Shown piece after piece: positions 7,344 to 62,347 of a stretch of DNA of 64,000 bases. This DNA is from Thermoplasmata archaeon (GTDB taxonomy: Archaea; Thermoplasmatota; Thermoplasmata; Halarchaeoplasmatales; Halarchaeoplasmataceae): NCBI GenBank assembly GCA_046484045.1, contig JAWOBZ010000080.1:28630-92629 (forward strand), given 5' to 3'. The notes beneath the pieces were generated by a model. It made no database searches. It was not told the origin of the DNA and saw nothing but the letters and a program-made list of their open reading frames with translations. Every line of letters begins with the position of its first letter. Position 1 is the first letter of the stretch. The translations under genes were made by a program, and so were the position numbers.

Positions 7344-8057
7344 ATGCAGCCAGGACAGATGGGATACGATAGGGGAATAACGGTCTTCTCTCCAGACGGT
7401 CGGCTTTTCCAGGTGGAGTACGCCAGGGAAGCCGTAAAGAGAGGTACGACAACCGTAGGAATCAAAACAGAAGAGGGCGTAGCCCTTATCGTTGACAAAA
7501 GAGTTTCAAGTAAATTAGTTGAATCAAGTTCGATTGAAAAGATATTCAAGATCGATAGAAAGATTGGATTGGCAACCTCGGGACTCGTTGCGGATGCAAG
7601 GGTCCTCGTAGATCATGCCAGAGTTATGGCTCAGATCAATCGTGTTTCTTACAACGAGCGGATAGATATTTCCACTCTGGTCAAGAAGATATGTGATTAC
7701 AAGCAGACTTACACCCAGTACGGCGGCGTGAGACCCTTCGGAACTGCGCTTTTGGTCGCAGGGATAGACGAGGGGGGCGCACATCTGTATGAAACCGATC
7801 CAAGCGGTGCTTTTCAAGCGCTTAAAGCCAACAGCATCGGCATGGACCGAGAGGAAGTCCAGGAAGTCTTCGAAGAAGAGTACGAAGAGAACATGAGTCT
7901 TGAAGATGGCATCCAATTGGCGATCAAGGGATTGGACAGGGCCGCAGAAGGTGATTTGAACCCTGAATCTCTCGAGGTCGCGATCATCACAAAAGATGCT
8001 GATTTTCACACACTTGAGGAAGATGAGATAGAAAAATACACGAAATCACTGAAGTAA
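7344..8057 (+). CDS. psmA: Proteasome subunit alpha
   Basis: The N-terminus YDRGITVFSPDGRLFQVEYAREA is the canonical alpha-subunit signature. The gene is the first of the exosome superoperon. Confidence 0.9.
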   Translation: MQPGQMGYDRGITVFSPDGRLFQVEYAREAVKRGTTTVGIKTEEGVALIVDKRVSSKLVESSSIEKIFKIDRKIGLATSGLVADARVLVDHARVMAQINRVSYNERIDISTLVKKICDYKQTYTQYGGVRPFGTALLVAGIDEGGAHLYETDPSGAFQALKANSIGMDREEVQEVFEEEYEENMSLEDGIQLAIKGLDRAAEGDLNPESLEVAIITKDADFHTLEEDEIEKYTKSLK

Positions 8058-8069
8058 AGGAGGATTTAT

Positions 8070-8801
8070 TTGGGTAAAAAAGATTTTCAAAAGGAACACA
8101 CCGATACGCTGCTTGACGAGCACGTGATCGCAAGGTACAAGTCACACGGTAAGATCTTTGAGATCTTGATCAAGCCCGATGCCGTAGAGAAATTTCGAGG
8201 AGGAAAAGAGATCTCCATATTAGAGAACATGCCGGTGGACAAGATCTTTACCGACGCAAAGAAAGGTGAAGAAGCATCCAACGACGATCTTGAGGAGATC
8301 TTTGATACATCCGACGTCGAGGAGATAGCCAACTATATACTTGACCACGGCGATGTACAGATAACCACGGAACAGAGAAGGAAAAGACAGGAACAGAAGA
8401 TGAAGGAGATAATCAACAGGATAGTCCGCAATTCCATGAACCCACAGACGGGGACGCCACATCCACCGACGAGGATAGAGAACGCTTTAAAAGAGGCGAA
8501 TTTCCATATCGACCCGTTCAAACCAGTAAGTATACAGGTAGAAGAAGTGGTCGATGAGATCAAAGCCCTTATCCCATTGAGTTTCAAGAAACTTTCCGTA
8601 TCAGTCACCCTCAGAGGGGATTACTACGGAAAATTGTACAGTGACATGAAGAAGATGGGGACATTAGTTGAAGAGAACTGGCTCGACGATGGTAGATGGA
8701 ATGGAATCCTCAAGATTCCAGCGGGCATTAAGGATGAATTCTTCGATATGTTGAATAATAAAACGAAAGGTACAGCGGAGTTAGAAGTATTAGATGATTG
8801 A
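8070..8801 (+). CDS. sdo1: SBDS (Shwachman-Bodian-Diamond) family ribosome maturation protein
   Basis: 243 aa with the N-terminal FYSN-like domain (VIARYKSHGKIFEIL). Its position after psmA in the exosome superoperon is conserved. Confidence 0.85.
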   Translation: MGKKDFQKEHTDTLLDEHVIARYKSHGKIFEILIKPDAVEKFRGGKEISILENMPVDKIFTDAKKGEEASNDDLEEIFDTSDVEEIANYILDHGDVQITTEQRRKRQEQKMKEIINRIVRNSMNPQTGTPHPPTRIENALKEANFHIDPFKPVSIQVEEVVDEIKALIPLSFKKLSVSVTLRGDYYGKLYSDMKKMGTLVEENWLDDGRWNGILKIPAGIKDEFFDMLNNKTKGTAELEVLDD

Positions 8802-8859
8802 ATTGAATGATATAGAATGTAGGGATAAGATGAATAGATATATTTTGTGAGGTATTGTT

Positions 8860-9564
8860 ATGAGTGAAAATAAAAGAGAAGTTAAGAGAGAATTACTCCT
8901 GCCAGGAGATACTATTGAGGAAGAAGACGTTAAACCAGGCAGAGGAACTTTCAAAGATGGTAACGAAATCCACGCGTCAAAGTTGGGCGTTAAAACATTT
9001 CGTTCAGGTTACGTGAACGTCGCCGCACAGAGCGGTAGGTACGATGCCAAGAGAGGTGACAAGGTCGTCGGTACGGTTACAGATGTGAATTCATCCATAT
9101 GGATGGTCGACCTTAACGCACCGTTCCCGGCCGTACTGCACGTGAACGACGTTCCTTGGAGAGTAGAATTCGGAGACACTAAGAGTTACATAGACGTCGG
9201 AGACGCGGTCTTAGTAAAGATAGCCAACGTCGACGAGTTGAAGAAGATACAGATACGGATGGACGAAGAAGGGCTAAGAAAGCTCAACAGTGGACAGATA
9301 ATCGAGATAGCTCCTTCCCAAGTTCCCAGAGTTATAGGTAGAAAGGGCTCCATGATATCCATGTTGAAGAAGTACACCAACTGCAGGATATTCGTGGGAC
9401 AGAACGGAAGGATCTGGATAGACGGCGATCTAGAAGGACAGTATTTGGCAGTTCGCGCTATAAAGATAATCGAGGAAAAGGCACAGGTGGTCGGACTGAC
9501 CGAGATAGTCAAAGAATTTTTGAAGGATGAAACAGGTAAGGATTTAGAAGAGGAAGAGGAATAA
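8860..9564 (+). CDS. rrp4: Exosome complex RNA-binding subunit Rrp4 (S1 + KH)
   Basis: An S1 region (GDKVVGTVTDV) and a KH motif (VIGRKGSMISML) are present. No Zn-ribbon is seen, so it is Rrp4 rather than Csl4. It directly precedes rrp41. Confidence 0.8.
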   Translation: MSENKREVKRELLLPGDTIEEEDVKPGRGTFKDGNEIHASKLGVKTFRSGYVNVAAQSGRYDAKRGDKVVGTVTDVNSSIWMVDLNAPFPAVLHVNDVPWRVEFGDTKSYIDVGDAVLVKIANVDELKKIQIRMDEEGLRKLNSGQIIEIAPSQVPRVIGRKGSMISMLKKYTNCRIFVGQNGRIWIDGDLEGQYLAVRAIKIIEEKAQVVGLTEIVKEFLKDETGKDLEEEEE

Positions 9565-9583
9565 ATAATCAGGAGGATTTATT

Positions 9584-10348
9584 ATGGGTAGTAATAAAGA
9601 TATTGAATTGATTGATGAAGAAGGTAACAGACTAGATGGTAGAAAATTTGATGAATTGAGAGAGATAACGATCGAAGCGGGAGTGCTCAAAAGGGCCGAC
9701 GGTTCAGCTTATCTAACATGGGGTAAGAACAAAGTCATAGTCGCCGTTTACGGACCTAGAGAGATGCATCCGCGGCACGCCCAGGACCCGTCAAAAGCAG
9801 TGGTACAGGCGAGGTACAACATGGCCTCGTTTTCCGTTCCAGACAGGAAAAGACCGGGACCGGACAGGCGTTCCATGGAGATAAGTAAATTGTTGTCCGA
9901 AGCGTTGGAAGAAGTCGTATTTGTTGAACAGTTCCCACGCTCATCCATCGATGTTTTCATAGAGATACTGGAGGCAAGTGCCGGGACGAGATGTGCCGCA
10001 CTCACAGCGGCATCGGTAGCTTTGGCGGACGCGGGCATACCGATGTCAAATATGGTCACATCCTGCGCAGCCGGTAAGATCGGAGGACAGGTCGTACTCG
10101 ACCTAGGTAAAAAAGAGGACAACTTCGGACAAGCCGACGTTCCAGTCGGAGTAGTCCCCAGGACGGGGAAGATAACCCTTCTACAGATGGACGGCCACTT
10201 GACCGTCGAGGAATACGAACAGGTCATGGATTTGGCTATCAACGCATGCAGCGAGATTTACGAGATACAGAGAGAAGCACTGAAAAAGAAATACTCTACG
10301 AATCTAGAGGACTTCGATGAGATGGATGAAATACAAGAGGAGGACTGA
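9584..10348 (+). CDS. rrp41: Exosome complex exonuclease Rrp41 (RNase PH-like, catalytic)
   Basis: RNase PH domain with an RxDGR-type phosphate-binding region ([11 protein letters not shown]). Confidence 0.85.
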
Positions 10349-10353
10349 GAACA

Positions 10354-11148
10354 ATGAAAGAAATAATATCAAAGATAACAAAAGATTACCTATTCAGGTT
10401 GATGATGGACGGCAAGAGGATAGACGGTAGGGACATGCTCGAACACAGGGATATAAAGATTGAACCCGGATTCATAGGTACAGCCGAAGGCTCTGCTAGA
10501 ATCAAGCTGGGCGATACCGATGTCATCGTAGGCATAAAGATGGACACCGGTGAACCGTTCCCGGACACCCCGGATAAAGGCGTCGTCATCACATCCGCCG
10601 AATTGATACCGTTAGCATCGCCAAAATTCGAATCCGGTCCACCGAGAGAAGATGCCACCGAACTCGCAAGGGTGGTCGACAGAGGTATCAGAGAAGGAAA
10701 CGTAGTGGACGTTACTAAACTGTGTATTGAAGAAGGAGAGAAAGTATGGCTCATATTCATCGATATGCACATACTGGACTTCGACGGAAACCTGTTCGAC
10801 GCATGCGGCATAGGTGCCATGGCGGCGTTGATGAACACCATAGTTCCTGCAGAGAGACACGAGTTGGGCGATGATTATCAGCTTCCGATAGAACACACCG
10901 TTGTTCCCACGACATTCACTAAGATCAAGAAGCAGATCATATTGGACTCGAGACTAGAAGAGGAACAGATCGCCGAAGCAAGGTTGACGATAGGTACCAA
11001 CGAAGACGGAGACATAGTCGCTATGCAGAAGGGGCTGAGCGGTGTGTTCGACTACGAAGATACACTCGAGTGCATCAATAATTCCAGGAAGATAGGCGGA
11101 AAGATCAGGAAAATGTTGATAGAACTATCCAAAGAGGATAAAGTATAA
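10354..11148 (+). CDS. rrp42: Exosome complex subunit Rrp42 (RNase PH-like, non-catalytic)
   Basis: A second RNase-PH-like protein follows rrp41 immediately (RIDGRDMLEHR). Confidence 0.85.
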   Translation: MKEIISKITKDYLFRLMMDGKRIDGRDMLEHRDIKIEPGFIGTAEGSARIKLGDTDVIVGIKMDTGEPFPDTPDKGVVITSAELIPLASPKFESGPPREDATELARVVDRGIREGNVVDVTKLCIEEGEKVWLIFIDMHILDFDGNLFDACGIGAMAALMNTIVPAERHELGDDYQLPIEHTVVPTTFTKIKKQIILDSRLEEEQIAEARLTIGTNEDGDIVAMQKGLSGVFDYEDTLECINNSRKIGGKIRKMLIELSKEDKV

Positions 11149-12196: not shown

Positions 12197-13138
12197 ATGG
12201 GTTTACCCGAAGGGAAAAAAACGCTCTTCTTGAGTCATCAGAATGCAGACCCAGATGCAGTCGGTTGTCTGTATTTTCTACAGAGTCGGTATAGAGGAGA
12301 TATAGGTCTACCAGACGAGCCCGATAAAAGAGGGAAGAGGTTGGCTGATTATCTAGAGATGGAATACACTATTTGTCCCTCTCCTGAGGAGTACGAGCAG
12401 ATCGTGGTTGTCGATACTCCGGACCCTAAACAGCTCGAACCGATACCGATCGTTGAGGAAAAAACTACGGTTATAGATCACCACAGAGCAAATCTATGGG
12501 CGGGATGGGATGTCGAGATGATATATGAAGACAGGGGATCGTGTGCCGAGATAATCTACGAGATGGTCAAACCGAGAGATATGACGGAAAAAGAGGTCTT
12601 TGCACTCACCGCAGGCATATTGACGGATACATCGTACCTAAATCGTGCCGACGAGGGAACTTTTCGTATATTGTCAGAACTGTTTTCTCGCTCCGAGATA
12701 ACCATATCCCAGGTTAAAAGAGAGCTGTTTAAAAAAAGGACCTACTCCGAGAAGATATGCAGGTTGAAGGGAGCCAAAAGGAGCTCTTTCCAGAAGGTCA
12801 ACGGTTACCTTATCGCCTATACAAAAGTAAATTCATTCGAATCCTCTGCATGTGATATACTCTTGAAGGCCGGGGCGGATGTTGCCTTCACGGTATCTGA
12901 AAGAGATGATGGGATAATAATATCGGGAAGAACTCGAGATTCTATGCTTGAATTGGGGATGGACCTAGGAGCGATAATGAAGGTGGTTTCATCTGCAAAA
13001 GAAAGTGCCTCCGGAGGAGGACATCCCGGAGCGGCGGTTTTCAAAGGTAACTGCAACTCGGAACAAATTCTAAGAGAGCTCCTCGCCAAGGTCACGGAAG
13101 AGATAAAGAAGAACGGATGGTACCGGCGTAAGGATTGA
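12197..13138 (+). CDS. DHH/DHHA1 family phosphoesterase (NrnA-like nanoRNase/pAp phosphatase)
   Basis: DHH-region His/Asp motifs (LSHQNADPDAVG, VIDHH) and the DHHA1 GGGH motif (SGGGHPGAA) are present. Confidence 0.75.
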   Translation: MGLPEGKKTLFLSHQNADPDAVGCLYFLQSRYRGDIGLPDEPDKRGKRLADYLEMEYTICPSPEEYEQIVVVDTPDPKQLEPIPIVEEKTTVIDHHRANLWAGWDVEMIYEDRGSCAEIIYEMVKPRDMTEKEVFALTAGILTDTSYLNRADEGTFRILSELFSRSEITISQVKRELFKKRTYSEKICRLKGAKRSSFQKVNGYLIAYTKVNSFESSACDILLKAGADVAFTVSERDDGIIISGRTRDSMLELGMDLGAIMKVVSSAKESASGGGHPGAAVFKGNCNSEQILRELLAKVTEEIKKNGWYRRKD

Positions 13139-15735: not shown

Positions 15736-15810
15736 GCCACTATAGCTTAGCTCGGCTAAAGCGATGGTTTCGTAAACCATAGACCGTGGGTTCAAATCCC
15801 ACTAGTGGCT
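15736..15810 (+). tRNA. tRNA-Thr (anticodon CGU); no encoded CCA
   Basis: Hand-folded cloverleaf. Acceptor stem gccacta/tagtggc, anticodon stem atggt/accat with loop ttCGTaa, T-arm gtggg-ttcaaat-cccac. Confidence 0.85.
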
Positions 15811-15826
15811 TCCTCATTACTTTACA

Positions 15827-15840
15827 AGACCGTGGGTTCA
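15827..15840 (+). repeat. 14-nt direct repeat of the tRNA-Thr variable/T-arm segment (agaccgtgggttca), 17 nt downstream of the tRNA
   Basis: The sequence is identical to 15781-15794, which lies inside the tRNA. Confidence 0.8.
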
Positions 15841-15942
15841 CGAGCAAGAACACATTCTTGCGAGCTGTTGGAAGCTCTGCTTCCTATCCTCCACCCAATC
15901 AATTTTTATACTAATTTCATACTGTAGCAAGAGGTAAGACGG

Positions 15943-16416
15943 ATGCGCAGATACATATCTCTCTCGGGAAATTACTGGAAGACGCTCAACGGTCTTTGGG
16001 CAGTACTCAAAGAGAGCGACTTCCGCCCGGAAGAGGTCGTACTGATAACAGAGAAAAAATCGATGAATAAAGCGAAGAGGATCCAGAGGGACATGAAGAT
16101 ACTGATGGACAGCTACGACCTGCCGGAGGAAGTTGGGATAAAAAAAGTGGGCAACTCGGATTACAACGGAACTTCGAAGATCGTGACTGGACTCATCAAG
16201 GATAACCTGGAAGGGGATAATAAAAACGCACTGGACCTCACCGGAGGCAGTAAATTGATGGTCGCCGCCGCTCTTTTCACTCCAGATACAGGCAAGATAG
16301 ACCATATATTCTTCCTGGATTTCGATGAAGATGATGGCATAGAACTTCCTTATCCCGATATACCCCACGGATCCGTAGAACTCAAGGATCTAGTGGAAGA
16401 AAGGAGGCGGGTATAG
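15943..16416 (+). CDS. CARF-like (Rossmann-fold ligand-sensor) domain protein, standalone
   Basis: The N-terminal strand/loop ISLSGNYWKTLNG and the DLTGGSKLM motif match the two conserved CARF signatures (hxSxxG... and [DN]xTGG[TS]KxM). An AGAGGT RBS lies 8 nt upstream. The gene abuts the next gene (stop at 16416, ATG at 16417). Confidence 0.5.
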   Translation: MRRYISLSGNYWKTLNGLWAVLKESDFRPEEVVLITEKKSMNKAKRIQRDMKILMDSYDLPEEVGIKKVGNSDYNGTSKIVTGLIKDNLEGDNKNALDLTGGSKLMVAAALFTPDTGKIDHIFFLDFDEDDGIELPYPDIPHGSVELKDLVEERRRV

Positions 16417-17490
16417 ATGGAGGAAGTCTTCACTAAAAGAGATCTCATGATGTTCCTGAACGAAGTGAAGAGACAGGGCATCGATCACTTCACCGTGGTA
16501 GAGCCTTACTTCAAAACCAAGATGCTGGACATCGAATTGAAGGGAGGGAGATACGAGGTGACGCTATCAGGTAAAAGCGATTTCGGACCCTATCCGTCCA
16601 AGGACAAGTACTGGGACGTAAGCGATGTGCCTGATTTCTACAGCTACAAGGACTGCTTGATCTCGTCCGGTCTGGTCAAATTCGATAACTGGTCCAAGTT
16701 CGAAGATTGGATAGGTTACTTCTACAAGAGCGAGATCGATCCGAGCTTCGCCAGCAAGTCTATATTCCTCTCCATCGATACGAACATGGCATACTATCGG
16801 CTTATTTCTAGAAGATTTCCCATCGAGAACAACGGATACAACATACAGGCATCGGACTTCGATTACCTGCTGAGCTCGATCGTGGAAGGGGAGATCGACC
16901 ACCACATCAAGGACAAGTACAGCAACATGGACATCAAGATGATGGGGATGTACACTAAGATAGGTGATATCCGCTACAATTTCAATAACCGTGGAAAGCT
17001 GATGACCAGGAAGGCAAAATTCGCCACCCAGGAGTTGAATTACCTCAGAGGGAAGCTCAACGCGGCTAGAGTGAAAGGGAACGTATCTAAAACAGATTCG
17101 GAGAAGAACGATATCTGGATAATAGAATCCCTGGAGCAGTTCGGATGGACGAAGAACATCAACGTGGGCTTCATCTCAGCCGACAGGAACATGGGCAACC
17201 ACGCCGAAAATGCCGAGATACCGTACTTCATCCTGGAGATACCGCACAACATACCCAGGAAGAACGTGGTGAACGAAGACGTCATCAAGAATTTACTGCA
17301 CGACCTAGCACTCATATTCGGCGCGGTAAAACTACCCGAGTTGGAAACCACGATGTTCGGCGTGTGGGGGGGTAAAACGGACTTCGATTACCGCAACGAG
17401 AGCGTCAAAGCGTGGGTGAATCCTAATTCATCCCTGGAAAAAGGTTTGAAAAAGGATGTGAAGATACTTAGATCTCTGAAAGGACCCTGA
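16417..17490 (+). CDS. PIN-domain nuclease with an uncharacterised ~100-aa N-terminal domain
   Basis: IFLSIDTNMAYY (the first PIN Asp motif) plus downstream acidic positions (IIESLEQFGW, FISADRN). An AGGAGG RBS lies 9 nt upstream. Confidence 0.55.
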   Translation: MEEVFTKRDLMMFLNEVKRQGIDHFTVVEPYFKTKMLDIELKGGRYEVTLSGKSDFGPYPSKDKYWDVSDVPDFYSYKDCLISSGLVKFDNWSKFEDWIGYFYKSEIDPSFASKSIFLSIDTNMAYYRLISRRFPIENNGYNIQASDFDYLLSSIVEGEIDHHIKDKYSNMDIKMMGMYTKIGDIRYNFNNRGKLMTRKAKFATQELNYLRGKLNAARVKGNVSKTDSEKNDIWIIESLEQFGWTKNINVGFISADRNMGNHAENAEIPYFILEIPHNIPRKNVVNEDVIKNLLHDLALIFGAVKLPELETTMFGVWGGKTDFDYRNESVKAWVNPNSSLEKGLKKDVKILRSLKGP

Positions 17491-17502
17491 TGATCCGACG
17501 CC

Positions 17503-19647
17503 CTAGGGTTTTTTTATTTCGTAACGCAATTTACTCTCTAGATAACCGAAGGGTGCCAGTATCTCTCCGCCGACTCTATACAGATATCTTTCGTAGTAAG
17601 AGGTATCGTAATATTCATCGTGATAGCCCACTATAGACACCTTGTTTTTGTAGTTCTTACTTTTGGCATCCGTCACCACGTATCGGATCACCTGCCCGGG
17701 ATGCACTCGGATACCGTGTTCTTTGTACTGGAGCAGTGCCGCCTTGGTCTCTGTCATGTGCTCGTACTCCTCCGCACCCTTGGACGTTATCTTGGTGAAG
17801 TGCAGTTCTCCCATGTCGGCTTTCCCAGAGCGTATCTCTCTTGCGTATCTTCTTACTACGTCTAGATATCCATGGATGCCGTCGAATAGTTCTTTTCTGC
17901 TCGTGCAGTCCGACATCTGGCGCAGTATCTCTTTCTGACAGTTCTTGAACAGCGTCGGTGTGTCCCTTCTCCTTGCGTGGATACCTTTGAACTCGAGTTT
18001 ACCGTCCAGCAGTCCGAAATATCGATTCGGCACACCTATCTTCGGATCTCCTTTACTGCCCAGGAACACCACCCATGAGTACTTGCCCTCCTTCTCCAGT
18101 ACTACCTTGGTTTTCTCCTCGACTATGGATAACAACTCTTCCACTCGTTCCTCACCGCCCTTCAACCAAAGAGAGTCCACGATGCCGTGAACAACTTCGT
18201 AGCCCATATCCTGGGCCGTATCGGCGGCTTCCAGCAGTATATCCCTGCCGTAGGCGGTAATACTCTCGTGAACCTCGATGTTGCTGAAACGTGCTTTCTT
18301 GTACCCTGTGTAACCGAAGCAGGTAACCAGCAGCCATTTGAGCACCTTGGCTCTGTCTTTGAAGACTTCGTTATCAGGCGTGGACTTGTAGAGCTGTCTT
18401 CTTTCAACAACCGGCCCTACGACCTTCGGAATAAGTCCTCTCCTTTTATTGCAGACCTTGTACCCCAGCTCAGGGACTACGTGATGATCACCGCAGGTGC
18501 ACCCCAGAGTCTCTGGCGAGAGGTTGTACTTGTCGATGATAGAGGGATACATGCTGGCGAAGTCCAGCTTGATCAGGTCTTCGTGAACGCCGATTATCGG
18601 AGAGTAGATGTGCCCGCCTCTGTCTGAGAGTATCAGCTGTCTCATTGTCTTGAAGCGCTCGGTGATGTTCTTCTTCCACGGTATCAGGTATCCGTCTTTC
18701 ATCGCCTGGGCGATCTCCATCGCATCGATGGCACTACCCGGACTTCGGCGGGAGAGCCTCTGCAGGGGGATCTTTGACAACCTGGCGATCTCTATGAGGC
18801 CGTCGATGCCTCCTTCGCGGTACATGAAAGAGCTTTGTTCGTCTATGTGTATGCGGCCCTTGAGTGTGTATGTAGGCGGTTTGTAGAGCACCCTGCCATA
18901 GGAAACGTAAGATGAACCCTGCCTGGGGGAGTGCATCGAACGCTCTCGTCCAAGGCATAAGGACACCTCGTGAAGTTCACTCCGATAAGCAAGATAAGGT
19001 ATCAAAAACGTGTCTCCGCCGGAGGTGATGACTATATCTGGATCTATGTTTTTGATACCGTCGTTCAGGTCTTTCAGTATACTCTCTTCGTCACCGCGTA
19101 TATCCATATCATCCAGTGCTGCTGATCGGAGTGGATCGTCCATCCTAGGTAAACCATCAGATTCCGTTTCTACATCCAATCTCACCGTGCGTAGAGGTGG
19201 TTTAGAGTAACGTATATTATCGCTATCCTCCAGCTCCCGCCATCCGTGGTTCTTCTCGACCAGTGAAAAAGTGCTGATGTCGTTCTCTATGAGATATCTC
19301 TGGCCCAGCGGTATGTCGACGTTGTAGAAAAGGTATTTCTGGTAGCCGTTGAAGAAATCCAAAGCATCCGCGTTCTTTCTGGGATCGAAAACTCTACCGG
19401 GTGAAACACGCAGAACATCCCTTTCTTTTCTATCGTGGATATCCGTTATCCTCTTCTCCGAACAGGTCTCGAAACCCATCTTCTCGTAGTGCATTTCGGC
19501 TTCACGGTGATCTCCGTCTTTAGCTCTCAAGAAAAAGACCGGGTCGTAATCGACCAAGACCTTGTGGCAGTCCTTCTTAGTCCGGATCCAGAGGACCATC
19601 TTCCCCTTTTTCAAGTCGGGGTAGATGTCCAATATCCATCCCTTCAT
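17503..19647 (-). CDS. polB: Family B DNA polymerase with substituted catalytic residues (PolB2-like, probably inactivated)
   Basis: The N-terminus MKGWILDIYPDLKKGKMVLWIRT is archaeal PolB-like. Exo I DVETE is intact. The Exo II region DPDIVITSGGDTFLIPYL has L where the catalytic Asp is expected. Motif A DFASMYPSII is intact. Motif B KWLLVTCFGYTGY has lost the conserved N and S. Motif C reads HGIVDS instead of YxDTDS. Confidence 0.8.
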   Translation of the reverse strand: MKGWILDIYPDLKKGKMVLWIRTKKDCHKVLVDYDPVFFLRAKDGDHREAEMHYEKMGFETCSEKRITDIHDRKERDVLRVSPGRVFDPRKNADALDFFNGYQKYLFYNVDIPLGQRYLIENDISTFSLVEKNHGWRELEDSDNIRYSKPPLRTVRLDVETESDGLPRMDDPLRSAALDDMDIRGDEESILKDLNDGIKNIDPDIVITSGGDTFLIPYLAYRSELHEVSLCLGRERSMHSPRQGSSYVSYGRVLYKPPTYTLKGRIHIDEQSSFMYREGGIDGLIEIARLSKIPLQRLSRRSPGSAIDAMEIAQAMKDGYLIPWKKNITERFKTMRQLILSDRGGHIYSPIIGVHEDLIKLDFASMYPSIIDKYNLSPETLGCTCGDHHVVPELGYKVCNKRRGLIPKVVGPVVERRQLYKSTPDNEVFKDRAKVLKWLLVTCFGYTGYKKARFSNIEVHESITAYGRDILLEAADTAQDMGYEVVHGIVDSLWLKGGEERVEELLSIVEEKTKVVLEKEGKYSWVVFLGSKGDPKIGVPNRYFGLLDGKLEFKGIHARRRDTPTLFKNCQKEILRQMSDCTSRKELFDGIHGYLDVVRRYAREIRSGKADMGELHFTKITSKGAEEYEHMTETKAALLQYKEHGIRVHPGQVIRYVVTDAKSKNYKNKVSIVGYHDEYYDTSYYERYLYRVGGEILAPFGYLESKLRYEIKKP

Positions 19648-33333: not shown

Positions 33334-33549
33334 ATGTCAAAGAACATATCTATCTCCGATGATGTATATGAGTGGCTCAAAGAGATGAAGGGTGCCGACA
33401 GCTTTTCATCCATAATCAGAAAATTGGGTAAAGGGGGCAATTTAGAAGACATTAACGGATTGAACATCCTGGAGGACTGGGGTAAGACCAAAAACGAATT
33501 AAAGAAAATGAGCGATAAAGAATGGGAGCGGTTGGAAGATGCTGCTTGA
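33334..33549 (+). CDS. vapB: Putative antitoxin (VapB-like) of the downstream PIN toxin
   Basis: Small (~71 aa) acidic protein whose stop overlaps the vapC start by 11 nt. The internal start at 33334 (MSKNISISDDVYEWL) is preferred over the ORF-track start. Confidence 0.5.
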   Translation: MSKNISISDDVYEWLKEMKGADSFSSIIRKLGKGGNLEDINGLNILEDWGKTKNELKKMSDKEWERLEDAA

Positions 33550-33922
33550 TACTACAGTGATGGTAGACATCGACAGGGGTATAGAAGAGAGAAAGATGGA
33601 TCACCTCATATCTCTATCTCCGCACATAGTTTCATCCGCTACCGTTATGGAGATATCGACCGGGTTCTTCAGATCTGATCGAAAAGCGATATTGTTAGAT
33701 GAGTTCATATCTCCGCTAACTATTATCCCCATCGATCAGAAAGTGGCTAGAAAAGCGGGAAAGATAGCTGCTAACTTGATCGAAAAGGGTAAAAGGATAG
33801 AGATCAACGATCTGTATATAGCTGCCACCGCTCTGTTACATGAAGAAACGATTTTAACTACTGATGTTAAGCATTATAAAAGAATAGAGGGTCTGGAAGT
33901 AGCAAACTGGGGAGATGTGTAG
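33539..33922 (+). CDS. vapC: PIN-domain toxin VapC
   Basis: The first PIN Asp lies in MLLDTTVMVDI. The conserved D/E/D positions fit (LTIIPID, TTDVKHY). Confidence 0.75.
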   Translation: MLLDTTVMVDIDRGIEERKMDHLISLSPHIVSSATVMEISTGFFRSDRKAILLDEFISPLTIIPIDQKVARKAGKIAANLIEKGKRIEINDLYIAATALLHEETILTTDVKHYKRIEGLEVANWGDV

Positions 33923-33934
33923 TGAGTATTACTA

Positions 33935-34387
33935 CTATCGTGGCATAACGATGTATCCTAAGCTCTTAAAATCATCATCAAAAGAAAATATATGTCCGAT
34001 GTCATACTCATCCATATATACCGCCGTACTCCAGTCCACGAAAGATAACTTGTTTTCTTCCCTTTTTAACCTATTCCATACAACTTTAAAATTCAACGAA
34101 GAGAAAGGGTGTATGATGACGTTTGAGTTCAACACCCTCTCTACGATATCCACAGCAGCATCGTAGTTATAATTATAACGAAGAAAGGTATAAGTCTCCT
34201 GTAAAACCATCTCAGACGTGTGTATCGACCCGAAACTGAGTTCGTTCTTTTTATTTCTATCGACAAAGGATCTTGCTTCCTCGTGATGTTTATCTTTTTT
34301 CTCGTTTAAGGCTATCCATGCACTAGTGTCAATAAAAATAGAGGGGTAGTCTCCCGCCATACTTTTACTTCCCGTAAAGTACTTCAT
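33935..34387 (-). CDS. vapC: PIN-domain toxin (second VapC-like)
   Basis: IFIDTSAWIAL is the first PIN motif, and FSFDDDF is the C-terminal acidic motif. An upstream RHH gene overlaps it. Confidence 0.7.
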   Translation of the reverse strand: MKYFTGSKSMAGDYPSIFIDTSAWIALNEKKDKHHEEARSFVDRNKKNELSFGSIHTSEMVLQETYTFLRYNYNYDAAVDIVERVLNSNVIIHPFSSLNFKVVWNRLKREENKLSFVDWSTAVYMDEYDIGHIFSFDDDFKSLGYIVMPR

Positions 34388-42156: not shown

Positions 42157-42401
42157 ATCGAAGTATGAAATATACCTGTTTTGGTCGTTTTTCCGTCTGA
42201 CGAACCGTCATACTTGTGTTTATTAGTTCGTTTTCGAACGATTATTTTATTTCTAAGACCATAATTATTTCATTTTTGGACCACTGGCTTTAATCAATTA
42301 ATAATCGGTATACACGTGAAAATCGTTTTATTTTTTTACCAAAAGATATATATATATTTAAAATATAAACTGAATTGCAATATTCCAAGGAGGAATATGA
42401 A

Positions 42402-45119
42402 ATGAATGTGAAAAAAATGAATAAAAGAATTAGTGTACTAGTATGCGCTATGCTTATGATGTCTTTGGTAGGACTTTTAGTTAGTCCTGCCCAGGCAGAA
42501 GACATAGCAGACAATCCCGACGATAGAGATGACTTTGTACGATTAGTAAGCACAACAAGTGATACAGGTGCCGCAGGTGATTACATAGACTGTTATGTAG
42601 GAGAAGAAGACGTTAGATTCGGACTGGAAGTTCAGTCGCTGCAGTATGGTGACGGAACTGGAAAGAACGTATCTAGAGTTTGGGTAGAATTGGATGTCAG
42701 CGCGCCCATATCCTGGGAAAACAGGGAAGAGACTCCAGGAGCACAGGGCGCAGACATGAGTGGAACTGAACCCGCTGCCAACTCGACGATAGTTTTCGGT
42801 GTCGACAGCGACGCATGGTACAATGCAAGACCGTTCGAGTTCGACGTTGACCCAGATGCCACACCCGGCGAGTACAGCATGACAGTGACTATCCACTACA
42901 GGTACGTAGACGAAACAAACACGGGACAAACCACAGAGCTCGAAACATGGATCCTTTTCGACATCATGGATAACACCATGGTCGATGATGGACAACCTGA
43001 TCTGTGGGCTGGAGAAGACTTCCAGCCGATAAGCTTCGACGTTGACCCAGATGCAGGAACGGTGAACATAGAAGATACGCACGTCACACTTGACGAAGCC
43101 AGTATCTCACCATCAGTAGACATCACCATCAGGGACGAAACCGCATTTATTCCTGGTGTATTAGCCAATCCAGACACAGCTAACTACAGATTCGATGTCG
43201 GAGCTGACGTACCACCGGATATCTACAGTGTAGATTACACACTCACAGCCATGAGAGCTGGAGTTGAGATCGAAGAAACTGGAAGAGTAAACTTCACAGT
43301 CGAATACACACCGAAAATAGAAGTGTCATACGATCCGATAGAGATAGAACAGGGAACTCTGACGTCAACGTTTAACGTTACCTTCGAGAACGTCGGCAAC
43401 GTGGACCTTAGTCAAGTGTATGTCGGTCTCAACGACGATCAAGACTATTTCCCAACCAAAGTTGAACATTACGAATACGGTGACGCTGTAGGTCCTGGAG
43501 CTTATTTATTGGGCGACGGCGATCTCGCAATAGCTGGTTCTGAGAGCATGACCTTCGGAATCGGATTCCACAGATACCTACAAGAAGGAGACCACAAACT
43601 GGAATTCAGATGGGACGGTTGGTATTACAACGACGGTTCCACTGGAGATCCAAGCTCTTACGAGCACATCGGTGTTGATTGGGCCGATGCAGACCCAGAC
43701 ACAGCATTCTTATACAATGTAGTTGCAGATAACCATGAATATGATAACCCTGGAGGAGACACTATCATTGGAGCCGCAGACCCATGGACAGAGCCGTATG
43801 CGATGATGTCGGTAGTTGACGAAGTCATAGACATGGAAGGGACCGCAGTAGGCAGTGTAATACTCGACGGAGATATCACATATGTACAGTTCCAAGTTAC
43901 GATATTCAACTATGAACTCGTAGATTTCAAGGATATCGAAGCCGTCCTGAACGTAGGAAGCGGAACTCCGTTCTTCCACCCACAGGACCACACGGCTACC
44001 ACGGTAGAGATGGACAAATCAGTATCAGATACAGAGATAGCTGCTTACGATCCAGCTACAGGTGACCCGGGAGAAGCTGATTTATCCTTCAACGTGGACA
44101 CCAACGACGACTTCGTTGCTGATACATTGTCCGGTAATGCTCACGCATACGCTGGAATAGTAACCATCAATAGGATGGTCAACGAAGACACACTGGAAGA
44201 GGTAACCAATCAGGACGTACCGATAGACGGAGAACTAGAAGGACTCGGACCCAAGATGGTCGTAGAAGGAACACTAGAGGATGACAAGGTCAAAGCCGGA
44301 GAGATGTTCAACCTGACCTACACACTTTCAAACCACGGCGACGACGTAGCTAGAGACGTATGGATGACCATGCAGCCCGAGTTATACGACAACGACGACT
44401 GGACGATCCACGATGGATTCATAACTGCCATCGCATCCGACAACGAAACGATGTCGATGTGGGGCATGTCAGAAGCCACAAACACAGAGTACTCCGAAGT
44501 GACCCTCGAAAACCTCGGTATCAACGATGCCAAGGAGATCGTCGAACTGCACATGTACGTGGAAGGTGCACTTTCCTCACCACAACCGCACATTTGGACG
44601 ATGTACGTCGGCGAACTCGCACCCGGTGAAGAGATCGAAGTGACCTGGCAGATGGTATCTGACAGGGACATGGAGATCGGAAAACCGTACCAGGAAGACA
44701 TCGAAGTTACTTGGATGGATTCAAACGGTGCCAACGATACACAGGTATTCCCAACTACCATCAGAACACAGAGTAAAGGTGAAACCTACGAGCCAAGCAG
44801 TGGATTCGCAGGAACTTCAACCGAAACCGGCTTGATAATCGTGTTCATCATAATCGTGATAGCACTACTGCTCATCGTTATGATGACTACGAAGAAAGGC
44901 GGTAAGAAAGAAGAGCCTGAAGAGGAAACCTGGGAAGAACCTGAACCAGAACCAGTGATGGAAGAAGAGACAGTCGAAGAAGAACCTTGGGGCGAACCTG
45001 AAGAGGAATCTTGGGAAGAAGAACCCGAAGAGGAATCCTGGGAAGAAGAACCCGAAGAGGAATCCTGGGAAGAAGAACCCGAGGAAGTCGAAGAATCCAA
45101 AGAAGAGGAAGTCTGGTAA
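42402..45119 (+). CDS. Large secreted cell-surface protein (S-layer/adhesin-like) with a C-terminal TM anchor and acidic repeat tail
   Basis: Signal peptide MNKRISVLVCAMLMMSLVGLLVSPAQA, an AT-rich strong promoter region and GGAGG RBS upstream, C-terminal TM LIIVFIIIVIALLLIVMM, then an (EEPEEESWE)n tail. Confidence 0.7.
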   Translation: MNVKKMNKRISVLVCAMLMMSLVGLLVSPAQAEDIADNPDDRDDFVRLVSTTSDTGAAGDYIDCYVGEEDVRFGLEVQSLQYGDGTGKNVSRVWVELDVSAPISWENREETPGAQGADMSGTEPAANSTIVFGVDSDAWYNARPFEFDVDPDATPGEYSMTVTIHYRYVDETNTGQTTELETWILFDIMDNTMVDDGQPDLWAGEDFQPISFDVDPDAGTVNIEDTHVTLDEASISPSVDITIRDETAFIPGVLANPDTANYRFDVGADVPPDIYSVDYTLTAMRAGVEIEETGRVNFTVEYTPKIEVSYDPIEIEQGTLTSTFNVTFENVGNVDLSQVYVGLNDDQDYFPTKVEHYEYGDAVGPGAYLLGDGDLAIAGSESMTFGIGFHRYLQEGDHKLEFRWDGWYYNDGSTGDPSSYEHIGVDWADADPDTAFLYNVVADNHEYDNPGGDTIIGAADPWTEPYAMMSVVDEVIDMEGTAVGSVILDGDITYVQFQVTIFNYELVDFKDIEAVLNVGSGTPFFHPQDHTATTVEMDKSVSDTEIAAYDPATGDPGEADLSFNVDTNDDFVADTLSGNAHAYAGIVTINRMVNEDTLEEVTNQDVPIDGELEGLGPKMVVEGTLEDDKVKAGEMFNLTYTLSNHGDDVARDVWMTMQPELYDNDDWTIHDGFITAIASDNETMSMWGMSEATNTEYSEVTLENLGINDAKEIVELHMYVEGALSSPQPHIWTMYVGELAPGEEIEVTWQMVSDRDMEIGKPYQEDIEVTWMDSNGANDTQVFPTTIRTQSKGETYEPSSGFAGTSTETGLIIVFIIIVIALLLIVMMTTKKGGKKEEPEEETWEEPEPEPVMEEETVEEEPWGEPEEESWEEEPEEESWEEEPEEESWEEEPEEVEESKEEEVW
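45000..45080 (+). repeat. Three tandem copies of a 27-nt unit (gaagaggaatcYtgggaagaagaaccc) encoding the EEESWEEEP repeats
   Basis: Exact or near-exact tandem units are seen directly at 45000-45026, 45027-45053 and 45054-45080. Confidence 0.9.
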
Positions 45120-49180: not shown

Positions 49181-50062
49181 ATGCTCGACTACTTGATGTC
49201 CAAGATAGTTTGGATAATCGCCGCAGTGGTGCTCACCGCCTCAGTCATCGGAGTCTACAACTGGCAGAGGCATTCCATGGAAGAGGTGGAGCTCGAAGAG
49301 AGGGCGAAGGGTATCTCGGAGATGGTGAACCGGATCTGCACTACGGACGGAGAGATCAAGCTGTTAGCGTCCAGCAACGAGAGCAGGGATCCAGATATCT
49401 ACTTGGAACCGTCGATAAACGGTCGGGTATATCAGCTGCAGTTCACACCCTCCGGTTTCTACTTAAAACAGGGTGACAAGATCATCTGGAGGGACTTCGT
49501 GGAGAACGTCCACATGATGAACCCTGCGTTGATAGGCGAAAACGATTACTCCCTGGTGAGCCAAGTCGACAGCATCGACCACGACCTGTCGATCTCGTCG
49601 GGTGAAAACTTCTACATCATGTCCAAGGGGTACAACGGGGTCTACGAAGTCTTCATCTACTCGGAAGATTCGGAAGGGGTCGTGGCTGAGACGAAAACGG
49701 TGGGCAGCGTCATAGCGGATTTCTTCCAAGTTAGGCCGTCCAAAGGTAATCTTAGCTACAACAAAACTGCCAACGACACCTTCAAGGGCGATATTACATT
49801 TCAAACGGACTGCCTTTTCCTCAACAACAATACGGAACTGCCGTGTCCCATACCGAAGGTACATCTGTGGAACGTGAGCTCTGAAAATATATCTGATATC
49901 AATATCACCCAGATGGACGAAGAGCACAGTAGATTACAAGTCCATAAGAACGAAAAGGTCCATCTGAAAAGACAGTTGTTATACATCGATGGAAATTTTA
50001 CAGCACATAGATTCATCTACACGGATCAAGCTTCTGTGATCTCTCCGGCGACCAGGTGGTAG
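49181..50062 (+). CDS. Hypothetical N-terminally membrane-anchored protein
   Basis: The N-terminal hydrophobic helix KIVWIIAAVVLTASVIGVY is followed by a ~270-aa extracytoplasmic region with N-glycosylation sequons. Its 3' end overlaps the giant gene by 37 nt. Confidence 0.45.
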   Translation: MLDYLMSKIVWIIAAVVLTASVIGVYNWQRHSMEEVELEERAKGISEMVNRICTTDGEIKLLASSNESRDPDIYLEPSINGRVYQLQFTPSGFYLKQGDKIIWRDFVENVHMMNPALIGENDYSLVSQVDSIDHDLSISSGENFYIMSKGYNGVYEVFIYSEDSEGVVAETKTVGSVIADFFQVRPSKGNLSYNKTANDTFKGDITFQTDCLFLNNNTELPCPIPKVHLWNVSSENISDINITQMDEEHSRLQVHKNEKVHLKRQLLYIDGNFTAHRFIYTDQASVISPATRW

Positions 50063-53000
50063 TCCGGACCCTTGACTCCGAATTCCACCTTGGACCTACC
50101 CATGTCTTTGCCTATCAAGGACGCTATCGCCGGGACGTTGGCTGAGAAGAAACCGGTGTATTTACCCTTGCCTACTTCCACTCCAAGATACGTGTCGTCC
50201 AGTATCTCCATGGGAAATTCATTCGTTGAACAGGAGGGTTTTTTATCGACTATACTCATGATCAAGTTCTTGATAGCGGTAGCTATCCAGGTGACGAAAG
50301 ATGCGATGGATTCACCACCTGTCAAAGCGAAAGTGAGTGTCACTTGGACTTCGTTCACGGTGGCTTGGAAGAAGAGCACCAGTTCCTGCACCACTTCCTT
50401 TATGAACTCGATGACCTCTTCGATGAACTTCATAACCATGGTTTTGACGAAGTTGATGATGTAGTCCAAACTGAATTTTGTTTTGCCCATCTTATCAGCG
50501 GTGTCTCTGAACGCACTGTTCACCAATCCCACTAGAATATCCCCGAAGCTCTCGTTGACATCTAAGTAAACTATCTGAAAACCAAGGTCCACATCGCTCA
50601 CAACAACGGGACCGATGGGGAACCTCGCTTCGTTTATACCTGTGTATTCTCCCAGGGTCACTTCGGTTTCGTTTTTCGGTGTTTTTCTCTTTGGGATGGT
50701 CAGGTTGACGTAGGTGCCGTCCCCCTCCTTTCCATGCAGACCCTGGCACTGGAACCATGCGGGGTATATGCTCGGTGACTCGTGGAACGGGTCCGCCAAC
50801 GGGTCCACCTGCCAATCGATATCAGTCTTTCCCACCCGTATCTTGCCGAAAGCGATCACGTCGCTCTCGAGAACGTTGAGGTTCAATCTGTAAGAAGTTC
50901 CGAACAGCTCACCGCCCAGGCTTATGTTGACGTACCTCGTCACGTTGTTTTCATACTTTGGAATCGAGGTCTCGTATCCGTCCGCGGTGACGTTCACCAT
51001 ACTGGACAGCCCGGTTATGGACAGGATCTTGTCCAAACACTTCAGTTTACCCTTGTCTTTCAGCTTGTCCAGTAAACTTTTGGCCTTGGGTCTTAAAAGG
51101 TCATTGATCGTGCTGTTGATAACGTCACCCAGCTTCTGGACCAACTTGGTGGCGTACTCTTTCAGTTTGTCCACCAGTTTATCGAATAACTCCATGATCT
51201 TTTCGATACCGTCTATGAGGTACGAAAGTGGCTTCTTGATGTACTTCCAGACTTTGTTCAAAAAGTTCATCGCATCAGAAAAAACGTCGTCGGAGAGCTT
51301 GTACTTGACTCCCGCCAACTTCCAGCCTGAATAAACCGTCAGCTCCAAAGAGAAAGAGATGTTCTCGGTGTGGTTCATCCAGACGTACCTGGGTTCACCG
51401 TCCTCTATGAGCGTAGGATCGGCCCTGCTGACGTTGTAATCCACCTCTATCGGGTCTATCTGTATCTTCCAATCCGTGCTGAACGGTCTGCTGGATATCT
51501 TGTTTACTTTCGTGTAGTGGACCCCTTTGGGCTTGCTTATATCGATCCTGTTGTCCAGTGAGATATAATCCGGCGTACAGTCGAATCTGAGCTTGAGCTC
51601 CCGCTCCCCTTCACCGTGTGAGAAACCAGCGGTTGTATCCACGGGTAAACGGTACTCCAGGTTGCTCATCTGACCTCCCATTATCATCTGGGTAGTCGTC
51701 GTTTTTAAAAACGATGACGCAAGCTCGAAAAGGGAATCGGTCATACTGCCTCCCCCTATTATCGACCATACCTTTCTCTGAAACAGGTTGCCCTGGATGT
51801 GCTCACCGTTCTTACTGGTCTTGAACTCGACGTGTTCTGCCTTCTTCAGTGAATTACCGTATAGGTCTTCCACGTCCGTGATGTTGAACCAGTAGCGCTG
51901 GTCGGACTCGAATTCACCATGGTGTAGGGTGATCATGGTCCCGTCTGCGTTCATATCGTACTCCCAAGACCCATCGTATGGATGGCACGTGAACTCCAGA
52001 CTGCTCTCTTTTATGGGCTCACTGAAAACGATGTGAAGTGGTATATCGGAGAGATACCGCTCGTTACCGTCCTCTGGACAAACGGCGATAACCTCCGGCC
52101 TGGTTGATTCCTTGATCTTGAACACGAATGGATTCGATATCCCCTCTGATATCCTCAGGTCGCTGCCGTTCTCGTCCTCTCCCTTTATGAACACCTTGTA
52201 TTTTACGCCGATTTCGAACGTTTCATGCGATATGACGACTTCGTCATCACCCACCCACGCGAAAGAGATGTTGGTTGTGTGGGGCTGTACGGACAGGTTG
52301 AAAGTGGTTTTGTTGATGGGTTTGCTGAACCTCACCCTTATGTTCTCGTTCTTGGAGATGTTCTCCGAACCGTTTACTGGGTAAGTGTAGGTGATCTCTG
52401 GAAGGTCTATCGACTTGGTCCTGTAATCCGCTGAGAAGAGAGTAGTACCGGTCCCTTCAGCTGTGACCGCGGCGCCGTCGTATCTGCTCTGCAGAGCGGA
52501 CAGATCGAACTCCAGGTCGATGTCGGCGCCGGGCGGGAAGGGTTCATGGTCCAGAACGAGTCGTTTACCGTTCTTTTCGAAACTATACTGCCAGGTGAGG
52601 TTGGAATCGATGAGATCTTGGATGCCGGTTGAAAATTCCACCCTCTCGTCGAAGGTCATGATTATCGAGCTCTCGACAGTTATCTCGCTGCCCGAGGACG
52701 GGTAGATACCGGTGACCTGTGGATACATCATGGTGGTCCAGGTGATGTCCTGGGGCTGCATCAAAGATGAATTCGTCCCGTTGTCCACGTCCTTAACACC
52801 ATCTATGGTCAGCTCGTATTCAGTGTAACGGAAGTAGAATTCAGATGGTGTCAATACCGCCCGGGTATCGTTATCATGCCAATTGACCGTGAAATCGACG
52901 TTTGGTGAGATAGAGTATGCCAAAGATTTCGTGTCCACTTTCTCGCTGAAGGTGACGGTGATCTCCTGGTCGGTGTTCCAGCTGTTGTTGCTGCTGGGTA

Positions 53001-57261: not shown

Positions 57262-57906
57262 TCATCCACATCCCTCTTCGTAAAAAAACGGGAACATGTC
57301 TTTCCTCAGTTTCGCCATCCTCCCGTCGGGGTGGGTGAACACTACGCCCTCTACGTAGCCCTTCTCTTTTGCTGTGTCGTACTTCATGTTGTGTGTTTTA
57401 GCGTAGAACAACGGAATGAGATCTTCCTTGAACCATTTGGAGATGGATTCGTAGGTCTTGGGGTATTTACCCCATGAGTGGTAAACGAGTTTTTCTCGAC
57501 TGTAGGTCGAGAACGGGATCCACAACCGCTGGTCTAGGTCGTATTTATTTTCCCTCCATTTAGGACTGGGGCCCACCAGTTCACCGAAATGCTGCCCGTC
57601 TTCTAGGTCATCCATGTATCCCTTGGAGTAGGAGTTGATCAGTCCTTTCATTATGAACGCCCCCTGCTTGCTGAAGAACGGGATCCTGTTCATCCTGTTC
57701 CAAACCTCGACGATCTCTCCATCTTCGATAATTATCGATACGTTGGTGCCGTCGAGCTTTTCGACCGCCATGACGGAGTCGTCCTGGAAGACCCATTCGT
57801 AGCCTTCGTTTATCTCGTCGATGACGACATAGTTGTCGTTCTCGTCATGTTCCCGGACAAATGGGCTGTGGAGCTTCGGCATGTTCTGAGCTTTGTACTC
57901 GGTCAT
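57262..57906 (-). CDS. Minimal ATP-dependent RNA/DNA-ligase-like nucleotidyltransferase (Rnl2/Rnl5-like)
   Basis: Motif I VEKLDGTNVSI (KxDG), motif IV-like EGVVFTHPDG and motif V AKLRK. Length is 214 aa and there is no OB domain. Confidence 0.55.
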   Translation of the reverse strand: MTEYKAQNMPKLHSPFVREHDENDNYVVIDEINEGYEWVFQDDSVMAVEKLDGTNVSIIIEDGEIVEVWNRMNRIPFFSKQGAFIMKGLINSYSKGYMDDLEDGQHFGELVGPSPKWRENKYDLDQRLWIPFSTYSREKLVYHSWGKYPKTYESISKWFKEDLIPLFYAKTHNMKYDTAKEKGYVEGVVFTHPDGRMAKLRKDMFPFFYEEGCG

Positions 57907-61092: not shown

Positions 61093-61185
61093 TTCATGTA
61101 TTATGTTATATTGTGAAATAAATCATTTAAATTTCAAATTCGAAACAGAGTTCGAAATGAAGGGGGGGCGTGTGAGGAAATTGAT

Positions 61186-62147: not shown

Positions 62148-62347
62148 ATTACCACCTGGTATAATATTTTACCAAGTGGTATTAATAGTTACCGGTTTGA
62201 GATACTAAACGTGAACTTTGTGGAGTGGCGTGTTTATCGAAACAGAGTGCGAAATGAAGGAGGGAGACAAACACTTTTCCAAAATCTGTGATGATATTTT
62301 TTTGAGTGTGATTTTGAGTTGTCTTAAGTTTTTAGTATTTACTCTGA

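Follow-up and report, generated by a model that had tools for sequence, protein, structure and literature searches.

Effectors that combine a CARF sensor domain with a PIN nuclease domain have been recognised since 2014 (PMC4012209), and CARF homologues lying outside CRISPR loci are abundant (PMC12669027). CARF genes away from CRISPR loci are common, and almost none of them is understood. Here, we report a tractable case, an adjoining CARF and PIN gene pair (positions 15943-17490) in a 64,000-nucleotide stretch of a Thermoplasmata archaeon genome (GenBank assembly GCA_046484045.1, contig JAWOBZ010000080.1, forward-strand positions 28,630 to 92,629; this whole stretch is called the window, and its numbering is used throughout). 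We consider it rather likely that the pair encodes the two subunits of a ligand-gated, probably cyclic-oligoadenylate-gated RNase that is vertically inherited.

The family is already catalogued in PADLOC and is partly CRISPR-associated: the CARF_m1 clade is held there as stand-alone models (PDLC01971/01972) and as a fusion model (PDLC01973). By its sequence, the window pair appears to be a lineage-specific member of this clade with no essential difference from it, and it shares the motifs YIxLxGxxxWxxxNS, LDITGGRK and PYPxIP with natural CARF_m1 fusions. The closest solved structure, SiRe_0806 of Sulfolobus islandicus (PDB 9jxw, apo; 9jxx, with the cyclic oligoadenylate cA4), is a 429-aa single chain deposited as 'PIN domain-containing protein'. 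It is ~70 residues longer than the window PIN subunit, with which its sequence identity is 16%, and the ~195 residues that precede its PIN core are presumably the ligand-binding domain. A literature search found no publication on SiRe_0806 or 9jxw.

The CARF+PIN proteins of Sulfolobales (Msed_1167 cluster; ST0035 'CARF-PIN toxin') are accessory genes of type III-A/B/D systems (PMC6546367). Likened by domains, they follow the same logic as the window pair, namely a PIN nuclease combined with a sensing CARF domain; they are fused, patchily distributed and located beside type III cassettes, whereas the window pair is split, fixed in position and without local cas genes. Crn1 ring nucleases (Sso2081/Sis0455, CARF_m13) are small stand-alone CARFs, one of which is the solved CARF nearest in sequence, and they have the GG(R/S)K lysine in common with the window CARF. 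Unlike the window CARF, which does not retain their catalytic serine, they have no coupled nuclease, and they carry a C-terminal helical insert. The CARF domain of RtcR, regulator of the RtcBA RNA-repair operon, works outside CRISPR-Cas (PMC7790460), and sensing of 2',3'-cyclic-phosphate oligonucleotides has been reported for it. RtcR is bacterial and has its CARF fused to a sigma-54 AAA+ activator, an output different from that of the window pair, to which it is likened as a precedent.

The gene pair and its products

The pair and the parts of its products are laid out as follows.

15943..16416, + strand: putative CARF_m1-clade sensor gene, 157 aa
16402..16407, + strand: AGGAGG Shine-Dalgarno sequence, within the 3' end of the CARF gene and 9 nt before the PIN ATG
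16417..17490, + strand: predicted PIN ribonuclease gene, 357 aa
16417..16746, + strand: adaptor domain at the N-terminus (aa 1-110), with a small beta-alpha-beta3 unit and then two helices, from model and conservation
16762..17256, + strand: PIN core (aa 116-280) with predicted catalytic residues D121, E159, D232 and D256
16777-16779, 16891-16893, 17110-17112 and 17182-17184, + strand: predicted catalytic codons of D121, E159, D232 and D256, respectively
17260..17487, + strand: C-terminal alpha/beta subdomain (aa 282-357), in which G302, G315 and W317-G-G-K320 are conserved

The CARF stop codon (TAG, 16414-16416) abuts the PIN start codon (ATG at 16417) with zero spacing, a junction that the initial annotation had placed correctly, and the internal AGGAGG together with the abutting stop and start points to translational coupling of the two genes. 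Both are genuine genes, conserved in 36 other species genomes, and two other assemblies, gene-called independently, yield identical 157-aa and 357-aa products. An antisense open reading frame (ORF) at 15838-16368 (176 aa) overlaps the conserved CARF gene and was rejected as spurious.

The 157-aa protein had been called a CARF from two signature motifs, and both are present (ISLSGNYWKTLNG, residues 5-17; DLTGGSKLM, residues 98-106). It matched the PADLOC model CARF_m1--CARF end to end (PDLC01971; E=3.5e-22, positions 2-155 of 156) and 33 other CARF-type PADLOC models (Csx1, Csm6, Csa3, Can-type and others); as PADLOC contains the CARF census profiles, these matches were taken as decisive for the assignment. 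Among 19 family members, individual proteins match Pfam Csa3_N (best 6e-6), HFX_2341_N, CARF_Card1, Cas_APE2256 and Cas_NE0113, and a profile built from the fused relatives aligned with Sso2081/Crn1, a cA4 ring nuclease, over residues 8-155 (E=0.002). The ligand-pocket motifs comprise the S8-G-N-Y-W12 loop after strand 1, which varies within the halophile clade described below, and D98-L-T-G-G-S-K104 after strand 4, in which D98 is invariant and K104 mostly retained (CARF alignments of 25 and 19 sequences). Alignments of CARF subunits gave N16, W19, the D98-K104 loop and a P136-Y-P138 motif as key residues. From its profile matches, the protein is thus best described as a CARF domain that stands alone and belongs to the CARF_m1 clade.

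The 357-aa protein matched the fusion model CARF_m1--CARF_PIN (PDLC01973; positions 222-452 of 465, E=1.6e-19), and its AlphaFold2 model, built with 84 diverse relatives as input, reached a predicted local distance difference test score (pLDDT) of 95.3 and a predicted template modelling score of 0.93; an earlier run with 25 close homologues (pLDDT 52.6) was discarded. A PIN nuclease with an extra N-terminal domain, as first proposed, is what these results describe. The model has the PIN fold, and a Foldseek search with it returned 'SiRe_0806 in complex with cA4' (E=6.5e-7). The PIN-core motif quoted in the initial annotation, IFLSIDTNMAYY, is present at residues 116-127, and the acidic tetrad is conserved across 138 diverse relatives (D121 100%, E159 99%, D232 100%, D256 99%), the check that the initial annotation had named for its PIN call. 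T122 and N123, which form a DTN motif with D121, and R198 are also conserved in these relatives, and N15 of the adaptor is 95% conserved. Some close relatives have a precomputed PF13638 match. Among non-CARF PINs, those of RNA processing (Rrp44, SMG6, Nob1, Utp24) match best, and this multidomain protein lies nearer to PIN_4 and RNA-processing PINs than to VapC. We predict that it is a PIN_4-type metal-dependent endoribonuclease with intact active-site residues. The split PIN subunit has no model of its own in PADLOC or NCBIfam, and source databases call it 'hypothetical' or 'PIN domain-containing protein'.

Family spread, synteny and neighbourhoods

An exhaustive HMMER search for the PIN subunit gave 252 clusters at 50% identity, nearly all of them 330-375 aa long and aligned over their full length (adaptor, PIN and C-terminal subdomain) without a CARF. 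A fused CARF is lacking in about 146 of the best 150 cluster representatives; the other four (P0087, P0089, P0099 and P0195; 510-531 aa) carry an N-terminal CARF extension (YITLMGRSGWAVVNS...LDITGGRKALVAG...KPYPMIP), in the order CARF, adaptor, PIN. Their alignment begins at query residue 3-5 for P0087, P0089 and P0099 (own residues 175-178) and at query residue 28 for P0195 (own residue 200). Since almost all PIN clusters are without a CARF and four of the best 150 are fused, the split arrangement is the norm for this family and fusion the exception, and the suggestion that the split form is unusual did not hold up, the 156-position PADLOC model being itself a stand-alone one. A further homologue search with a broad alignment added four proteins. 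Source names of members cover Thermoplasmata, 'Euryarchaeota', Thermococci, Methanosalsum natronophilum, Thorarchaeota, Baldrarchaeota and one Deltaproteobacteria metagenome-assembled genome (MAG).

A scan of 185,579 species genomes, with retrieval through the PIN gene, yielded 36 related loci, all from halophilic Thermoplasmata, to which the window also belongs (Ca. Saliniplasma, Natronoplasma, Halarchaeoplasma and Haladaptatiplasma among them). The CARF gene stands directly upstream of the PIN gene in all 36, with a stop-to-start gap, as called, of -4 to +6 nt in 32, in agreement with the initial description of sensor and nuclease as separate, translationally coupled polypeptides. Together with the window, this makes 37 of 37 genomes in which the pair has an orthologous location, on a backbone that neighbour clustering gives as phosphoglycerate kinase (PGK) / tRNA-Thr / pair / (PolB) / cysteinyl-tRNA synthetase (CysRS). 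CysRS lies downstream in 26 of the 36 loci and PGK upstream in 12; PolB and two small genes sit between PIN and CysRS in 9, and the complete string of Rrp4, Rrp41, Rrp42, DHH, aminoacyl-tRNA synthetase and PGK is found in 6. Median pairwise identity was 0.64 for PIN, 0.64 for PGK, 0.73 for CysRS, 0.52 for PolB and ~0.32 for CARF; the CARF subunit evolves about twice as fast as its partner. Spearman correlations of PIN identity with that of flanking genes are 0.58 for CysRS, 0.85 for the c3 gene and 0.71 for PolB. No second copy of the pair turned up in the DNA examined. Relatives of the pair were also absent from IMG/VR and from viral fold libraries, and a virus origin was rejected on these empty searches. 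Because synteny is conserved, PIN identity tracks that of flanking genes and no viral relatives were found, the pair appears to be inherited vertically at a fixed housekeeping position in halophilic Thermoplasmata ('Haloplasmatales'-type MAGs) and not carried on a mobile defence island.

Upstream of the pair lie a tRNA gene and a partial copy of it, as first annotated.

15736..15810, + strand: tRNA-Thr, anticodon CGT (ARAGORN), ancestral upstream neighbour of the pair
15827..15840, + strand: 14-nt duplicate of the tRNA T-arm AGACCGTGGGTTCA (tRNA positions 46-59)

The chance expectation of a 14-nt copy in the 132-nt spacer is ~3e-5, and the duplicate was probably left behind by an integration or excision event. 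Similar copies of the tRNA 3' end (16-17 nt) occur in L001, L010 and L032, and across these loci and the window the duplicates (14-17 nt) lie 17-90 nt downstream of the tRNA. A same-strand tRNA-Thr is upstream of the pair in 16 of the 36 related loci (anticodon CGT in 15, TGT in 1), and the tRNA-to-pair spacer ranges among these 16 from 13 bp to 6.3 kb (e.g., L001, L010, L011, L013, L032). The tRNA-Thr(CGT) gene thus looks like an insertion hot spot. The variable DNA is inserted downstream of the tRNA and ahead of the pair, which keeps its place on the PGK...CysRS backbone; therefore, the pair as cargo of a tRNA-integrated island was rejected, and the adjacency to a tRNA, which had been singled out, is ancestral synteny. 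In four genomes the CARF start lies 13-30 nt past the tRNA 3' end, with a Shine-Dalgarno-like AGGA. As a separate archaeal promoter would not fit into so short a spacer, tRNA-Thr and the operon are probably transcribed together in those four; the window, by contrast, has a TTTTTATA box at 15903-15910. The short spacers are as follows.

L014, 1628-1657: tRNA-CARF spacer
L015, 7555-7567: tRNA-CARF spacer
L018, 3294-3322: tRNA-CARF spacer
L020, 103-123: tRNA-CARF spacer

Beyond the halophile clade, the directly upstream gene in 11 of 11 distant split loci encodes a 128-188-aa CARF (halophile CARF hidden Markov model [HMM], E=1e-16 to 1e-32). In Methanosalsum natronophilum (L051), 5 kb separate the pair from type III RAMPs and Cas10. 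In a Baldrarchaeota genome (L050), the pair stands between cas2 and cas4 with Cas_NE0113, cas1 and cas6 nearby, and in L037 it adjoins cas6 and a Cas2-like ORF. No counterpart of the type III neighbourhood of L051 was found in the window or, by tblastn of limited sensitivity, in the 36 related loci. The label 'orphan' given initially is therefore apt for the 64-kb window and does not extend to the family, members of which are cas-linked elsewhere, so that this genome may hold a type III system outside the window.

Other distant members have different company. Three Thermoplasmata loci (L043, L045 and L046) hold four same-strand genes amid housekeeping genes without cas, in the order Csa3-like CARF with a winged helix-turn-helix, second Csa3-like CARF (Pfam HFX_2341_N/Csa3_N), CARF_m1, PIN. 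Neighbouring Csa3-like CARF proteins gave no match to the halophile CARF HMM, and an hhalign comparison of the CARF alignment with a single Csa3-like neighbour was not significant. L041 resembles a defence island, with a Csa3-like regulator, a metallo-beta-lactamase (MBL)-fold gene, HerA-like and SbcCD-like genes and an integrase. In a Thorarchaeota MAG (L047, 1255-8430), the pair is flanked by a 464-aa TIR protein, two unknown proteins and a PLD-family protein; the TIR enzyme is a possible alternative signal generator. L038-L040, L048 and L049 have the pair in housekeeping settings without cas. An MBL-fold gene adjoins the pair in L041/L042 and L044 and lies ~5 kb off in L038-L040; the three MBL proteins listed below are mutually homologous, and their N-terminus is RNase J-like by reading. 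The MBL, Csa3-like, TIR and cas neighbour proteins of the distant loci found no tblastn match in the window or the 36 halophile loci.

L043, 8202-11068: four-gene, three-CARF cluster
L045 and L046, 8203-11074: four-gene, three-CARF cluster
L041, 8098-9462: MBL-fold gene
L044, 892-2397: MBL-fold gene
L038, 3116-4504: MBL-fold gene (products of the three genes 454-501 aa, Lactamase_B_2 with RMMBL RNA-specificity motif)

Proposed mechanism and its alternatives

Under the reading that we favour, the CARF subunit would dimerise, as expected from other CARFs, and the D98-L-T-G-G-S-K104 loop would line the pocket in which the dimer binds a nucleotide second messenger. Because the genes look translationally coupled and natural CARF-adaptor-PIN fusions exist, we propose that the two proteins are made in a fixed ratio and act as one complex, in which the CARF subunit would dock on the adaptor domain of the PIN subunit and the bound ligand would switch on RNA cleavage. 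By homology, the likeliest ligand would be a cyclic oligoadenylate such as cA4, or a related oligoadenylate, and the source of cA4 would be a type III CRISPR Cas10 elsewhere in the genome. Complex formation, the direction of regulation, ligand identity and the RNA substrate are all inferred here. A link of the family to CRISPR signalling is supported by the cas-linked distant members and by the Sulfolobales CARF+PIN proteins, type III accessory genes of which ST0035 binds cA4 weakly (PMC6546367); binding of a cyclic oligoadenylate by the pair is suggested indirectly, by ST0035 and by the closest structure, which was solved with cA4.

Several observations weigh against this reading. The 64-kb window gave no CRISPR-like array, and no cas gene or cyclase was found by PADLOC on 54 window proteins (among the best 25 of 80 families), by Pfam on 28 window proteins, or by PADLOC on 9 window proteins, most of them without a Pfam assignment, as the initial annotation had stated for the window. 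Nor was a cas homologue found within 8 kb on either side (contig permitting) of the 36 related loci by tblastn, a search of limited sensitivity that used the cas proteins of L037, L050 and L051 as queries. No ligand source was found in the window or the related loci. The 157-aa protein falls below Pfam and NCBIfam cut-offs (Csa3_N E=0.22; TIGR02710 E=0.04), as does the PIN subunit for PIN_4 (PF13638; 19 bits, gathering cut-off 21.9). The CARF subunit evolves fast (median identity ~32%), and parts of its ligand loop differ among halophile CARFs (SAAS or GGDN replacing TGGS; in some, SAASE/K for TGGSK). ST0035, the sole CARF-PIN protein with biochemistry among the searched papers, binds cA4 weakly, and its RNase activity is not induced (PMC6546367). 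Finally, a fixed position and a PIN subunit conserved to the level of PGK (64%) are atypical for a defence effector. The defence-island interpretation first put forward is weakened because the pair is conserved and syntenic in 36 of 36 loci with its PIN as conserved as PGK; the ligand-gated RNase that formed part of that proposal is kept here as the probable function.

The same conservation feeds the alternative that we rate highest, although we hold it to be unlikely: the module would have been co-opted as a CRISPR-independent housekeeping or stress RNase whose CARF senses an endogenous nucleotide or RNA end, e.g., 2',3'-cyclic-phosphate oligonucleotides, and which tunes RNA turnover or tRNA/rRNA processing with no antiviral part. 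Its setting fits, the pair being fixed in 37 of 37 genomes among PGK, tRNA-Thr, aminoacyl-tRNA synthetases and PolB with exosome Rrp4/41/42 5 kb off, as do the housekeeping contexts without cas in other Thermoplasmata and Thermococci. The spacers of 13-30 nt in four genomes imply co-transcription with tRNA-Thr, L041 and L044 carry an RNA-metabolising MBL-fold gene beside the pair (L038-L040 at a distance of ~5 kb), the non-CARF PINs that match best process RNA, and RtcR is a precedent for a CARF outside CRISPR (PMC7790460). However, distant members of the same two-gene family lie within or beside CRISPR-cas loci, the closest solved structure binds cA4, and the absence of type III genes is a local one in loci retrieved via the PIN gene. 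We give limited credence to a combined history in which an ancestrally CRISPR-linked pair became, through domestication in halophilic Thermoplasmata, a CRISPR-independent RNase of the core genome, with the fast-evolving CARF reading an endogenous nucleotide or RNA-end signal and, in some genomes, the operon co-transcribed with tRNA-Thr(CGT); if true, this would be a native example of CARF signalling for housekeeping RNA control.

It is quite improbable that the small CARF is a Crn1-type ring nuclease degrading cA4, with the PIN protein a separate effector or switched off by the CARF, so that the pair would be a self-limiting on/off module. A stand-alone CARF of ~150 aa does resemble Crn1, Sso2081/Crn1 is the best solved-structure match of the family CARF, and K104 is the equivalent of Sso2081 Lys106, which together with Ser11 has a described role in the ring nuclease (PMC10018336). 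All four fusions (GxSxW) and 6 of 8 distant split CARFs have Ser or Thr as the Ser11-equivalent, but at this position the window protein has N10, and the residue varies freely (D/S/N/K/E) across the halophile clade, and the obligatory coupling and PIN fusion suggest a sensor role. In relatives that keep the Ser11-equivalent, a ring-nuclease role of the CARF is possible, judging from this residue. Least probable, and in our view very doubtful, is a VapBC-like toxin-antitoxin pair with the CARF as proteinaceous antitoxin of a PIN toxin, a possibility raised in the initial annotation. A small upstream gene that abuts or overlaps a downstream PIN gene and evolves far faster than it would suit such a pair, and the window also has AbiE-type matches and, by eye, PIN- or HEPN/MNT-like ORFs. 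The upstream protein, however, is a CARF with no match to a DNA-binding antitoxin family (Pfam, NCBIfam, PADLOC), the PIN protein is multidomain and not the ~130-aa VapC type, the pair is syntenic and apparently vertical instead of patchy and mobile, with no second copy in the DNA examined, and natural CARF-PIN fusions exist.

What remains distinctive is the clade-wide fixation at a housekeeping locus without local cas, the asymmetric evolution of the subunits and an effector without a dedicated annotation model. The architecture of the family can be read from its natural fusions, and the family offers a contrast between lineages, with the pair in type III or other cas loci in some and fixed among housekeeping genes in at least 37 halophilic Thermoplasmata genomes; knowledge of the CARF ligand in both settings would tell whether effectors of cyclic oligoadenylates can be re-used for RNA control outside defence. 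Should a type III system encoded elsewhere in the genome use the pair as a distal effector, the pair would be one more ancillary nuclease.

Other content of the window

Between the convergent PIN and PolB genes lies a palindrome, read from the sequence, that resembles a bidirectional terminator.

17501..17519, no strand assigned: palindrome CCCTAGGG followed by a T-run

Housekeeping genes make up most of the remaining window (exosome/proteasome cluster, DHH-DHHA1, Tyr/Trp-tRNA synthetase, PGK, PolB, CysRS, RFC and others); the proteasome, SBDS, Rrp42, PGK and PolB labels were read from translations. The exosome/proteasome superoperon (7344-11148) is 5 kb upstream of the pair and partly syntenic with it in 6 loci; its Rrp4 and Rrp41 were confirmed with Pfam, and proteasome alpha, SBDS and Rrp42 were assigned by reading. 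At 2.8 kb upstream of the pair is a DHH-DHHA1 phosphoesterase gene (12197-13138, 313 aa) that keeps its synteny in 6 related loci and had no PADLOC match. Some enzymes of the DHH-DHHA1 family break down short oligoribonucleotides and cyclic nucleotides.

PADLOC matched AbiEi/AbiEii at ~59.5-61.1 kb (region 59519-62842), and PDC-S27, PDC-S70 and HEAT-repeat models were also matched among window proteins. A HEPN/MNT-like ORF pair (61186-62147) and PIN-like ORFs (33539-33922, 33935-34387 and 62348-62842) were noted by eye. A 214-aa RNA-ligase-family protein (57262-57906; Pfam RNA_ligase, E=1e-9) had no PADLOC match. A 1976-aa predicted membrane or surface protein is encoded at 50026-55956, and a 914-aa CARDB-containing protein (42375-45119) carries a 27-nt (9-aa) acidic tandem repeat at 44913-45085.

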